A stretch of DNA of 18,936 bases from Candidatus Baldrarchaeum yapensis (GTDB taxonomy: Archaea; Asgardarchaeota; Baldrarchaeia; Baldrarchaeales; Baldrarchaeaceae): positions 1 through 18,936 of the forward strand of contig JAEOSH010000047.1 of assembly GCA_016840465.1 (NCBI GenBank), read 5' to 3'. Every line of letters starts with the position of its first letter. The first letter of the stretch is position 1. Below, piece after piece: positions 7,221-18,757 of this stretch. The notes beneath the pieces were generated by a model. The model made no database searches. It had not been told where the DNA came from and saw nothing but the letters and a program-made list of their open reading frames with translations. A program made the position numbers and the translations under genes.

Positions 7221-7308
7221 GCCGGGGTGGCCGAGTGGTTTAGGCGGCGGACTGCAGTAATGGACAGATATCCGCTTTACCGGGGTTCGAATCCCCGCCC
7301 CGGCTCCA
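7221..7308 (+). tRNA. tRNA-Cys (GCA) with 12-nt intron at 37/38 (7258-7269), CCA encoded
   Basis: GCCGGGG/CCCCGGC acceptor with U73 discriminator. Anticodon arm GCGGA-CTGCAG[TAATGGACAGAT]A-TCCGC. Removing 12 nt gives a 76-nt tRNA. Confidence 0.93.
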
Positions 7309-14430: not shown

Positions 14431-14910
14431 ATGCCGTTTACCTGCATAAGATGCGGTAAGTGCTGCACCGAAACTGAAATGCTACTGCTGGAGGAAGATA
14501 TTGCAAGGCTTGAGTCGCTAGGACACAATAGGTCTGAGTTCTCACTCATTAGAAGAGACGGCCTCGTGCAACTCAAAAACGTCAATGGCCATTGTTACTT
14601 CTTCGACCCCGCTACGAGAAGGTGTAAGGTGTACGAGTGGAGACCCCTAGGATGCCGCTTTTACCCAATAATATACTCGATAACCGAGGATAAATGCGTG
14701 CCTGACAAGGACTGTCCTATGTCTCACACAGTATCGCCCGAGGAGATAAAAAGAGCATGCCCTCATCTTAGAAAGCTCGTCAAGCAACTCATTGCAGAGG
14801 CCCACATCCGTAAGTTGCTGTTCTCAGGTGATTACTATGAACATGACAAAAAGGATTATAAAGTTTGCAAGAAGACTAGGCGTGGACATAATAGGCATAG
14901 CGGACGTTAA
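14431..14910 (+). CDS. YkgJ/UPF0153-family CxxCxxCC putative Fe-S or Zn cluster protein
   Basis: FTCIRCGKCC...CYFFD...CKVYEWRPLGCRFYP. Confidence 0.85.
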   Translation: MPFTCIRCGKCCTETEMLLLEEDIARLESLGHNRSEFSLIRRDGLVQLKNVNGHCYFFDPATRRCKVYEWRPLGCRFYPIIYSITEDKCVPDKDCPMSHTVSPEEIKRACPHLRKLVKQLIAEAHIRKLLFSGDYYEHDKKDYKVCKKTRRGHNRHSGR

Positions 14911-15508
14911 ACATTTTAAAGCAGCACCTGAAGATCAGAAACCGGAGAATATACTACCAAACGCGAATACTGTCATCGTAGTTGGAATAAAACTGCTAGA
15001 CGCGGTGGTCGAAACCGCACCAAGCAGAGAGTACGCGATACACTACATGGTAGTCAATGAGGAGCTTAATAGGATAGCTTACCACTTAGCCCGTCATATA
15101 GAAAAAATGGGGTACGAGGCCGTGCCGATTCCCGCCTCCTCCCCATACGATGAGAGAAACCTTAAGGGGAGCATATCACATAGACATGCAGCAATGCTTG
15201 CAGGTATCGGGTGGATAGGTAAGAGTTCTCTCCTCATATCGCCAGAATACGGACCGCGCATCCGTCTAGTATCAATAATTACTGCAGCCCCTCTCACCCC
15301 TAATGAGCCCTTCGGGCAAAACCTATGTGGAGACTGCAATATTTGTGAGAAGTATTGTCCGACAAACGCCATTAAGGATAGTAATTTGAATAAGACGGCA
15401 TGCGTCTCTTACATGAGAAAATTGCAAAAAGATCTCGGAATTAACGATCTCATATGTGGCATATGCGTAAAGGTTTGCCCCTATGGCAGAAAAACCCGCA
15501 AAACATAA
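14837..15508 (+). CDS. QueG/reductive-dehalogenase-like 4Fe-4S protein (putatively cobamide-binding)
   Basis: GVDIIGIA, SHRHAAMLAGIGWIGKSSLLISPEYGPRIRL, CGDCNICEKYCP and CGICVKVCP. SD GGTGAT precedes ATG14837/14843. Confidence 0.85.
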   Translation: MNMTKRIIKFARRLGVDIIGIADVKHFKAAPEDQKPENILPNANTVIVVGIKLLDAVVETAPSREYAIHYMVVNEELNRIAYHLARHIEKMGYEAVPIPASSPYDERNLKGSISHRHAAMLAGIGWIGKSSLLISPEYGPRIRLVSIITAAPLTPNEPFGQNLCGDCNICEKYCPTNAIKDSNLNKTACVSYMRKLQKDLGINDLICGICVKVCPYGRKTRKT

Positions 15509-15516
15509 TAATCTTG

Positions 15517-15683
15517 TGGCCCCGGGGATCCAGGCGGCGCAACAGGGAATTTCAACGGGTGGGGCAAGGGATCATGGAGGCACCAGACTCTTAGTGATAA
15601 GGGATGCCCCAGAAGGCGCCCGCACCCGCATCGGGACGCCCTGGGTGCCCAAGGAGAGGTAATGTCCTGGATCCCCGGGGCCA
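15517..15683. ncRNA. GC-rich structured element closed by a perfect 18-bp inverted repeat (unknown ncRNA or MITE)
   Basis: TGGCCCCGGGGATCCAGG (15517-15534) pairs with CCTGGATCCCCGGGGCCA (15666-15683). 109/167 G+C (65%, hand count). Several internal helices. Confidence 0.6.
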
Positions 15684-15704
15684 TGTATAATTCTGCATAA
15701 CGTC

Positions 15705-15712
15705 ATATAAAA
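15705..15712 (-). promoter_or_regulatory. Putative TATA box pointing into the structured element
   Basis: Minus strand TTTTATAT ends 22 nt before the element edge, matching archaeal TATA-to-start spacing. BRE is weak. Confidence 0.4.
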
Positions 15713-15825: not shown

Positions 15826-18387
15826 TTACTGCCCACCGTGAGACTTTTGCGCCAGAAGATCACGCTCCTTAGTTATTATCTCGGCGATTTTCCTCCCCGC
15901 ATCCATTGATGGCACACTATAAAATCTCCCTCCCGCGAGAATGGCGATCAATCTTGTCAATGCAATGCCAACTGCTGGAAAGTCCCAACGTTTCTCCACT
16001 TCTTTAACGAACGCGTCACCATCAAAATGACCGTCGACCGTGCATCTCCTATAAACTTCCATAACATCCTCATCGCTCATTTTATAAGCTTCAGCGGCGG
16101 GATCCGGGTTTATGACGACAAAATGAACTCCGGCCCTCTTCATCGTTAGAGAAACCCGTATAACGTCTTCTATCGCCAACTCCCGCTTTGACGCTGCGGT
16201 AAACGCGCTAATAGGTCTTGTTTCCCCAGTATCCGGATCCTTAAGTAGAGGAACATTCGCAAAGCCGTCTGTGATCAATACAATCATGGGTATAACTTCT
16301 GGATCTCGTAATCTTTCCCTTTTAACGGCCATCAACGCCTCCACTAAGCCAGATGCCAGCGGAGTGTATCCACTCACCCTTAACTTCCTCAACTTTCCAG
16401 CAACGGCTCTCAAGTTTCTCGTGGGATACTGTATTACCGCCGCACCTGTATCTTTCAGTGCAATTATCCCCAGTTTATCACGATACCTATATGCGTCCTG
16501 ATAGAGCTTTAAAAGCGCCTCACGAAGTTGCATCAAAGTTATCATCATCGACTCGCTGATATCGAGTACCAGTAATATTGTGATCGGAGCATAATAGGCA
16601 TGTACGCACTCCCTTATGTCCTCCTTCGAAATATTCACTATCTCTGCATCATTAAATCCAGCACCTCGTGCAGCAGCCGCCCGTATGGTCGCAGGTATGT
16701 GAACTGTATGCACCTCTCCCCGCGGTAATCGCCAACCTATAACTCTCCCTTGTCTTGCTTCTGATAACGTCAATGCTCGCTTTCCAATGCTCTGTCTAGT
16801 TATCTTGTCCCTCCCTCTAATCTTGAAAGTCAAATCATACGTCTTGAGTAGGCTCATCCTCAGGGACGCGATCACCATCAGACCTCTAAAAAAATCCGAT
16901 ATACGGCGTTTGAACCCCAAAAATCCAGCAGATAACATTCGTTCTCTCAAAGTCCTCAGTAGCGAAGATTCCTTCCTCTTCTGTGGCAATGAAATTTCTT
17001 CAGCGGACTTCAAAGGTCTTATCAGTCTCTTGAGGAGCGTCGCTAGTGCGTAGATGAACAACACGGATAATAACATTGGCAATAGAACTGGCGGAGAAAA
17101 CCCGACATTCATAAAAATTATATAAAGGATCGCCGCTACGAAGAACAAAGTCGGCAAAATAAGCGCCTTAAAACGAATCTTCACAGCTCGCTTGCCTATG
17201 AGCCTGCCCCTAATTGCCGAAGAACTCACAGTCCTTTTGTCTTTACTTGCTCCACTGCCTTTAGCGGAACTTCTCGACCCGGTGGGAGCAACCGCCTGCC
17301 TGATCCCCTCAACAGGAAATTCTTTAGGGATCTCCTCTCTATATTCTTTCACCCTCATCTCATCCAATGCTCTCTTAAAAGCCTCTCTTATCTCGTCTTC
17401 GCTCGGCGGTTCTAGGAACCCTTTCTTCCTAGTTCTATGCTGTAACGCCAATTTCGCCGCTTTTAAGACATCTTCTTCCGTCACAACATTCCTTTCATCC
17501 AGCGCGGCTATTGCCCTTGCCGTTTTATAAATTACTATGTCAGGCCTCATCCCATCTACCTGAAGTTGCACACACATCCTGCATATTGCCTCTAACAAAC
17601 GCTCCGGAATCCTCACCTTTGGCAACAACTCCCGCGCCCTTAAAATCCTCTTCCGCAACTTCTCTTGCTCCTTTTTAAACTTCCTATAAAAGTTCTCCGG
17701 ATCTCTCTCAAACTCGATATTCCTCCGTACTATCTCCATGCGCTCCTCCACTGACATGACGTTGTCCACCGTGACCGAAAGTGCAAGCCGATCCAACAAC
17801 TGCGGCCTTAACTCGCCCTCCTCGGGGTTCATTGTGCCAATAAGTACAAATCGGGAGGGATGCCTAACAGAAATCCCTTCTCGCTCCACAACATTCCATC
17901 CCGATGCGGCAACATCCAGAAGATCGTCAACTAAATGATCCGGCAACAGGTTTATCTCATCAATGTAAAGGATATTTTGGTTCGCATCTGCCAGAATTCC
18001 TGGCTTGAAGGCCTCAATCCCTCCCCTCAGCGCCCTCTCAACATCTATACTCCCCACAACTCTATCTTCCGTCGCACTCAGAGGTAATGTTATTATCCGC
18101 ATTTTTCTCCTTGTTACCGGGAGTTCCTCTCCCCGCTCATACCTCTCTCTACACCGCTCACACATGTTCGTTGGATCCCTCGGATTGCAACCATACCGGC
18201 AATCCTTTACAACCTCGACCTCCGGAAGCAAATCCTCCAACGCCCTTACGAGTGTCGACTTCCCTGTTCCCTTCGGACCCCTTATTAAAACTCCACCGAT
18301 CGTAGGATCAACTACGTTGACCAAAAGTGCAAGTTTCGCGTCTTCAAGACCAACAAATGCTGTAAAGGGCAATATATGTCGCGTCAA
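15826..18387 (-). CDS. ChlI/ChlD-like chelatase-family AAA+ ATPase fused to a VWA domain, with two internal TM helices
   Basis: [21 protein letters not shown] (Walker A), [10 protein letters not shown] (Walker B), [24 protein letters not shown]; MIDAS LDISESM / GYTP / ITDG. Probable start TTG18387 after GAGGT; the ORF is open to 18492. Confidence 0.88.
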
Positions 18388-18757
18388 AAGTGCCAACCTC
18401 TCGCTCCCGTTGCTATTGCCAGAAATGCCATAAAAAACAACGTTTTTGTAAATCAACTTGCACCGTAAATAACTCCGACAAACTACAAGCATAACTCAAG
18501 AACCTCTGCAATAACGTGGTATTTAAGCCTGTCGGCAATCACACCCCAACTTTATCACTTTATGAAAAACTTTCCTTCTCACAAACAAACTAAATATGAA
18601 TCACCCGCACTCGACTCCCCTAAACTATCCTTTTTTAATTTCGACATGCACACTCTTTCACATAAAAACGTTTATTATTTGCAATCACGCTCGCAAATAA
18701 ATGACGAATTTTTACCCGAGACTGTCACATTGCACCGACCCATATTTATACTCCGGC

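Follow-up and report, generated by a model that had tools for sequence, protein, structure and literature searches.

Several kinds of described element lie close to the one reported here. GC-rich non-coding RNA genes (Hgc) were reportedly found by composition in AT-rich hyperthermophilic archaea by Klein, Misulovin and Eddy in 2002. Stem-loops that stabilize the upstream mRNA include the REP sequence in malE-malF of Escherichia coli and the 3' inverted repeats of chloroplasts; to our knowledge, no element of this sort has a documented function of that kind in archaea. MITEs and palindromic intergenic repeats are exemplified by the SM elements of the archaeon Sulfolobus and by the enterobacterial ERIC and REP sequences. 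Bacterial 6S RNA (RF00013) is mostly double-stranded and rod-like, and we know of no archaeal 6S RNA.

The element analyzed here spans 167 nt (positions 15517-15683) of the window, which is an entire 18.9-kb contig (C81) from a 2.27-Mb metagenome-assembled genome (MAG) of 96% completeness. It resembles the Hgc RNAs in being a sharply bounded GC-rich island with paired ends in the AT-richer non-coding DNA of a thermophilic archaeon, but it has no Rfam Hgc match, no strong promoter and no homologue in other genomes. A size of ~170-180 nt, a mostly double-stranded rod, a long closing stem and a large internal loop are shared with bacterial 6S RNA; however, the element does not match the 6S model, its loop is one-sided and lies beside the closing stem whereas that of 6S RNA is central, and it has no link to RNA polymerase. 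Like the mRNA-stabilizing 3'-UTR stem-loops, it is a stable hairpin placed right after a stop codon, between convergent genes, and can form on either strand, although it is several times larger and is unique in the genome rather than recurrent. With MITEs and palindromic intergenic repeats it shares terminal inverted repeats, TG...CA ends, a length of ~170 bp, an intergenic position and a hairpin on both strands, but it is single-copy, belongs to no family in the collections searched, and lacks a convincing target duplication or a cognate transposase. Nothing specific to an element of such kind was found in the literature. The kind is known, as GC-rich structured RNA candidates in thermophilic archaea, and the element is a member of no known family. 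The reading preferred here, tentatively and with a probability of roughly 0.35, is that it constitutes a lineage-specific, single-copy structured RNA module that would be co-transcribed on the plus strand as the 3' hairpin of a Cys-rich/QueG-like operon. The coordinates of the features are given in Table 1.

Table 1. Features of the element and its surroundings, in window coordinates.
Feature	Position	Strand	Remarks
QueG-like 4Fe-4S gene	14792-15508	+	last gene of Cys-rich cluster; stop codon precedes the element by 8 nt
T5 and T4 runs read on the minus strand	15490-15503	-	14-27 nt beyond the element; within the end of the QueG-like gene
2-base extension of the closing helix to 20 bp	15515-15516	+ only	G-U/U-G pairs with 15684-15685; GU-tolerant helix scan
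Closing helix, 5' arm (perfect 18-bp inverted repeat)	15517-15534		starts with TG
Interior, 131 nt, GC-rich	15535-15665	+	purine-rich on the plus strand; marginally structured alone
Apical 6-bp hairpin with GUGA (GNRA) loop	15588-15603	+	contains a U-G pair, read as a C-A mismatch in the minus strand
14-nt one-sided unpaired stretch beside the closing helix in the rod fold	15650-15663	+	SD- plus AUG-like on the plus strand, anti-SD-like on the minus strand
Closing helix, 3' arm (perfect 18-bp inverted repeat)	15666-15683		finishes with CA
TATA-like TTTTATAT	15705-15712	-	21 nt upstream of the helix; weak fit to the genome BRE/TATA profile
First T4 and T5 runs past the QueG-like stop codon	15790-15805	+	likely end of plus-strand transcripts carrying the element
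AAA+ (Mg-chelatase type)/VWA gene	15826-18492	-	convergent; stop codon 142 nt past the element

A preliminary description of this DNA had reported a perfect 18-bp terminal stem and a GC content of 65% in AT-richer surroundings, and both were recovered, the genome as a whole having 45.9% GC. Perfect 18-bp inverted repeats at 60-260 nt spacing are expected ~0.01 times per genome (2.27 Mb x 200 spacings x 0.25^18), and a genome scan returned only seven inverted repeats of at least 14 bp, two of which were contig-end artefacts. Perfect palindromes with arms of 26 and 70 bp at the starts of contigs C38 (1-107) and C74 (1-141), respectively, are most likely assembly foldback artefacts. The MFE of the element was -92.6 kcal/mol on the plus strand and -91.1 kcal/mol on the minus strand (z -5.3 and -4.9), with none of 200 shuffles as good. 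The MFE and centroid folds of both strands at 37, 60 and 75°C were an unbranched rod, which at 75°C still had an energy of ~-39 kcal/mol. When the interior (GC ~62%) was folded without the 18-bp stem, the z values were -1.71 and -2.08, and 11 and 7 of 200 shuffles, respectively, were as good; the closing helix supplies nearly all of the structural signal. When the halves beyond the stem were aligned with each other as a foldback, 34 Watson-Crick pairs resulted, with many mismatches and 19 gap positions. GC and AT skews on the plus strand were +0.12 and +0.24 for the whole element and +0.16 and +0.28 for the interior, and the purine skew of the interior indicates that it is not a decayed perfect palindrome. 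The feature is real. It comes down to a GC-rich interior of weak self-complementarity closed by an 18-bp stem; the architecture had been over-interpreted.

The exposed 14-nt loop was used in a genome-wide search for trans targets, and complementary sites were not enriched (104 matches, compared with 108 for the reversed control). A Shine-Dalgarno-like AAGGAG lies on the plus strand of this loop (window 15651-15700), followed by an ATG at 15662 and a 12-codon mini-ORF that runs through the 3' stem arm; this arrangement is probably a coincidence.

The element is present in one copy in the genome, and the stretch that carries it was also found in DNA runs of sediment, hydrothermal-vent and seawater metagenomes; no RNA run was among those listed for it. 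In nine other assemblies of the same species, made from independent samples, the element was base-for-base identical and the flanks were identical except for one SNP, the loci being at least 99.9% identical; because the element recurs unchanged in nine independent assemblies, it is not an assembly artefact. Covariation could not be seen, since all known copies are at least 99.9% identical across the locus. In the most divergent strain, 13 SNPs were counted over 1601 nt, and the element had none against an expectation of ~1.4, a difference that is not significant. No skipped, excised, empty-site or inverted form was found in the 10 assemblies and in the contigs of four runs, and the run contigs showed no indels.

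Outside the species, an orthologue of the AAA/VWA gene (61-62% identity) was located in two genomes of the sister family, and the element was absent downstream of it in both; the gap after the gene was 9 nt in one genome (G003), and in the other (G004) ~100 nt of AT-rich DNA followed before the contig ended. The nearest homologues of the QueG-like gene have no element at their loci and carry T6-T7 runs 17-24 nt past their stop codons. A BLAST search against 60 Asgard relatives and a search of 150 Asgard genomes with a single-sequence covariance model of the rod fold each returned only the element itself. The pair of arms was found neither in viral contigs nor in phage and plasmid collections, and its one match among species-representative genomes was an unrelated inverted repeat of high GC content, located where a contig of a Longimicrobiales MAG ends. 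The 18-mer arm had 67 matches in 241 million metagenome records, all of them single arms (median GC 65%); the DNA around them was unrelated and mostly of high GC, and neither the second arm nor anything similar to the interior accompanied them. On the strength of these searches, the element appears to be a single-copy orphan restricted to its species.

The preliminary description had also placed the element outside known RNA classes, with no tRNA, SRP RNA or RNase P signature, and this was borne out. None of the 4227 models of Rfam 15 matched at E<=10 between 15400 and 15850, the only matches in the window being two tRNAs elsewhere, and there were no partial Rfam matches in the element of the kind that halves of a known RNA in swapped order would give. 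tRNA, permuted tRNA and tmRNA were rejected on the basis of ARAGORN, which found nothing in the element in either native or doubled sequence. RNase P RNA and SRP RNA were both located elsewhere in the genome, and the 5S rRNA is a permuted gene on contig C56. A permuted or circularised archaeal RNA flanked by a BHB motif, on the pattern of the Asgard 5S gene, was rejected because the helix is an uninterrupted 18 bp without two 3-nt bulges 4 bp apart, and the bases adjoining the closing helix cannot form the 4-bp central helix of a BHB. The retron (msr-msd) and Y RNA (YrlA) ideas were discarded since the genome has neither a reverse transcriptase (no RVT_1 match anywhere) nor a Ro protein (no TROVE match); the neighbors are the QueG-like and AAA/VWA genes, and no Y RNA match was found in Rfam. 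A bridge RNA was rejected as well, the only IS110-like ORF being sub-threshold and on another contig.

According to the preferred reading, a GC-rich block would have been acquired in one lineage just past the stop codon of the operon. RNA polymerase passing the stop at 15508, where no oligo-T signal follows, would transcribe the 167-nt block before reaching the T4 and T5 runs, and the transcript would fold into a highly stable rod hairpin with a base helix of 18 Watson-Crick bp (20 bp with two G-U pairs) and a GNRA loop capping the tip. For a thermophile, a hairpin of this kind could serve as a heat-stable 3' barrier shielding the upstream mRNA from 3'-to-5' decay, and it could also keep out transcription from the convergent AAA/VWA gene, so that both units would be insulated; alternatively, the block might persist as a stable 3'-derived RNA. 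An element that is real and stable, as indicated by its identity in nine assemblies and by the non-random closing helix, is consistent with this reading. An RNA is further suggested by a GC content of 65% in a genome of 45.9%, the SRP RNA, RNase P RNA and 5S rRNA having GC fractions of 0.66-0.71, and by the fact that every identified island among the 121 non-coding GC-rich ones is an RNA gene (tRNA, rRNA or SRP RNA).

With regard to the strand, fold energies are balanced, and the ambiguity that had earlier been ascribed to G-U wobbles holds, as the foldback alignment yields six strand-specific G-U pairs each way. Composition leans to the plus strand, opposite to the minus strand suggested by the TATA-like sequence. 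The plus-strand skew of the element resembles that of the sense strands of stable RNAs, whose GC/AT skews were +0.12/+0.12 for the SRP RNA, +0.13/+0.22 for the RNase P RNA and +0.02/+0.15 for the 5S rRNA, and also that of the sense strand of an RNA candidate on contig C11 that is described below; this match favors the plus strand. The plus strand is also favored by the two G-U pairs that the closing helix gains there only, by the tip hairpin, whose U-G pair is lost on the other strand, and by the distance of 8 nt from the stop codon without a T-run, the closest homologues of the gene having their T-runs soon after the stop. Between the QueG-like stop codon and the element there is no T-run on the plus strand, and past the stem there is no run of at least four T for 106 nt. 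A hairpin-plus-U-tract terminator was rejected because a U-run directly after the stem is absent on both strands, the first run on the minus strand being 14 nt off.

Several points count against a 3' tail. A length of 167 nt far exceeds the need of a protective hairpin, and archaeal termination requires no hairpin at all. The two strands are nearly equal in energy and G-U pairs, and covariation is lacking. The element is not tied to the QueG-like family and is missing after the orthologous AAA/VWA gene in the two sister-family genomes. Among 373 convergent gene pairs of the genome, the median gap was 17 nt and no comparable structures were found, so such a hairpin is not a general device in this genome.

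A free-standing small RNA gene on the minus strand, with its own promoter, a start at ~15683, an end at the T-runs at ~15503-15490 and a trans-acting or protein-binding product, is unlikely but well within consideration. The limits of the GC island coincide exactly with the ends of the helix, an arrangement shared with stable RNAs that have paired 5' and 3' ends. The T-runs that the preliminary description had noted beyond the far end are real (A5 at 15490-15494 and A4 at 15500-15503 on the plus strand), and transcripts of the minus strand could stop there. The same description had placed a TATA box at start-site distance; the minus-strand string TTTTATAT is present, but it is weak as a promoter. 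When scored with a BRE/TATA profile trained on the 32 tRNA genes of the same genome, the site obtained 1.2 bits, a level reached by ~20% of AT-rich background windows (P ~0.2), whereas the 5S rRNA gene obtained 9.6 bits, the C11 candidate 7.7 bits and the SRP RNA gene 5.1 bits, all three with sites at the expected distance. This difference in promoter score is a reason for preferring the 3' tail over a minus-strand gene. In addition, the minus strand is pyrimidine-rich, unlike the sense strands of the SRP RNA, RNase P RNA, 5S rRNA and C11 controls; the tip hairpin contains a C-A mismatch on that strand; the interior is barely structured; and neither a homologue nor covariation was found among the 60 relatives and 150 Asgard genomes. 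When 129 convergent gaps of 30-600 nt were folded, the gap that contains the element ranked second in structure per base, the first being that of the SRP RNA. This rank is in keeping with a free-standing gene, and it fits a 3' tail and an inert insertion equally.

The C11 candidate (C11:10119-10283, equivalent to L065:1620-1784, minus strand) is a second orphan built in a similar way, and its promoter, U-run and strand asymmetry lend some weight to a free-standing gene. It is 165 nt long with a perfect closing helix of 19 bp (24 bp with G-U pairs), folds into a three-way junction with -123.5 kcal/mol on the minus strand compared with -99.5 kcal/mol on the plus strand, is followed immediately by its U-run, and is located ~180 nt upstream of a tRNA-Gly gene on the same strand. 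Neither an Rfam match nor a homologue in the 60 relatives was found for it, and a divergent 5S rRNA was ruled out by alignment and arm order. A 23-nt stretch of its second hairpin recurs, with 22 of 23 bases identical, at C71:7856-7878. The element and the C11 candidate are alike in size, GC content, a perfect closing helix of 18-19 bp with a GCCCC/GGGGC core, single copy number and the absence of Rfam matches and homologues; they have no sequence similarity, and the element is a rod without the three-way junction, strong BRE/TATA, immediate U-run and 24 kcal/mol strand asymmetry of its counterpart.

A solo foldback or MITE-like insertion, or a scrap of foreign DNA with terminal inverted repeats, having no function at the RNA level, is likewise improbable without being negligible. 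Such an origin would account for terminal inverted repeats that match at 18 of 18 bp, the TG...CA ends, the poorly pairing interior, a composition foreign to the AT-rich surroundings and the absence of the element beside the orthologous gene in G003 and G004, and the genome does carry several repeated GC-rich non-coding families. However, the MITE that the preliminary description had offered as an alternative found no support in the copy-number check, since no second element exists elsewhere in the genome; with a single copy, and with no relatives sharing its arms in the metagenomes, viral contigs, phages, plasmids or 150 Asgard genomes, there is no MITE family. The sole flank duplication is 2 bp long (TG/TG), which is expected by chance in 1 of 16 cases. 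No transposase end in the genome carries the arm, and near-matches to the arm occur in unrelated contexts. No likeness to the eight repeated GC-island families of the genome was detected by BLAST or by nhmmer profiles at E<=10. The 10 assemblies and four runs contained neither an empty-site nor an excised form, and the strong purine skew suits a transcribed RNA better than inert DNA.

It is doubtful, and considerably less probable than the readings above, that the element and its look-alikes (C11:10119-10283, C89:73395-73506 and others) belong together as a new stable-RNA class of Asgard archaea. Its defining feature would be a long perfect terminal helix with a GCCCC/GGGGC core; its members might act, for example, as a dsRNA decoy or as the handle of an RNA-binding protein, and they would have to evolve too fast for sequence searches to connect them. 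A species-restricted orphan with neither covariation nor a partner cannot yet carry the claim of a new RNA class, and it is chiefly useful as a target for the mapping of metatranscriptomes. If transcribed, the element would count among roughly two dozen GC-rich RNA candidates that are still unexplained in a thermophilic Asgard archaeon, and Asgard RNA biology bears on the origin of eukaryotes.

The multibranch core that was proposed first, with a pseudoknot between an internal loop and the 5' region, is very unlikely. All the helices quoted for it (15579-15586 with 15641-15649; 15588-15603 with the GUGA loop; and 15615-15640) occur where they were placed and can form, and the loop sequence CACCCG (15623-15628) is exactly complementary to CGGGTG (15556-15561). 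When these helices were enforced, however, the energy was -74.6 kcal/mol compared with -92.6 kcal/mol for the rod, a loss of 18 kcal/mol, and ~60 pairable nt were left single-stranded. In the rod, the pairing of 15556-15561 with 15623-15628 is an ordinary helix that runs 4 bp further, at the cost of the hairpin at 15615-15640, and no covariation supports the branched form.

A DNA-level site, either an inverton or a recombinase or binding site set by the inverted repeats, is more improbable still: 18-bp inverted repeats around ~130 bp have the geometry of an inverton, but all 10 assemblies show one orientation, the contigs examined contain no strand-switch joints, no recombinase gene is nearby, the segment has no internal promoter, and a switch between two gene ends would control nothing. 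A small protein gene is the least credible of all, because although both the 67-aa leaderless ORF (minus strand, 15684-15481), whose ATG precedes the helix by one base and is spaced from the TATA-like box as a start site would be, and the 59-aa ORF (plus strand, 15483-15662), which was called in four assemblies, are open, such frames are expected in a block of 65% GC, the start codon is buried in the 18-bp helix, a word-indexed search of 5.8 billion proteins gave no homologue of either (the plus-strand ORF matched only itself), and the minus-strand ORF had no match when 1.84 billion representatives were searched exhaustively with HMMER.

The 121 non-coding GC-rich islands of the genome comprised ~30 tRNAs, a few rRNA or SRP RNA loci and 43 islands in eight repeat families (13, 8, 7, 6, 3, 2, 2 and 2 copies). 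Thirty-one islands were singletons, 26 of which, besides the element and the C11 candidate, had no Rfam match at the gathering score. Several singletons are closed by helices of 10-24 bp, including C30:70-188, C6:9725-9845 and C56:100648-100864 (10-15 bp). The GC-rich block at C89:73395-73506 (~112 nt), also unassigned, has a closing helix of ~16 bp with a GGCCCC/GGGGCC core and a three-way junction, and its layout is like that of the element, in that it lies 2 nt past the stop codon of a plus-strand gene and 152 nt before the stop codon of a convergent gene. In IS110 elements, the bridge RNA would lie at the position that a 124-nt GC-rich island (C1:26256-26379) occupies directly upstream of a fragment of an IS110-type (DEDD) transposase that scores below threshold and is interrupted by an internal stop (C1:26479-26706).

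The 5S rRNA gene (C56:97630-97789, equivalent to L150:66-225) was found to be circularly permuted: the stretch 97648-97714 corresponds to 5S positions 50-115, and positions 4-50 follow downstream, at 97729-97777. A 4-nt loop caps helix I, a perfect 12-bp helix closes off the new ends, the strong BRE/TATA site of 9.6 bits lies upstream, and the Rfam 5S model misses the gene. The swapped order was also seen in loci of at least six other Asgard genomes, one of them complete. According to a 2026 paper, archaeal 5S rRNA is not known to be circularised (PMC12918454).

The tRNA complement of the genome also appears to be under-annotated. ARAGORN reported only 32 tRNAs genome-wide and none for Pro, Lys, Asn, Cys, Trp, Tyr or Met, from which it follows that many intron-bearing tRNAs are probably unannotated. 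One tRNA gene within the window itself (7221-7308) scored 53 bits with Rfam and was given no anticodon by ARAGORN; it contains a 15-nt insertion in the anticodon loop region and is probably intron-bearing.
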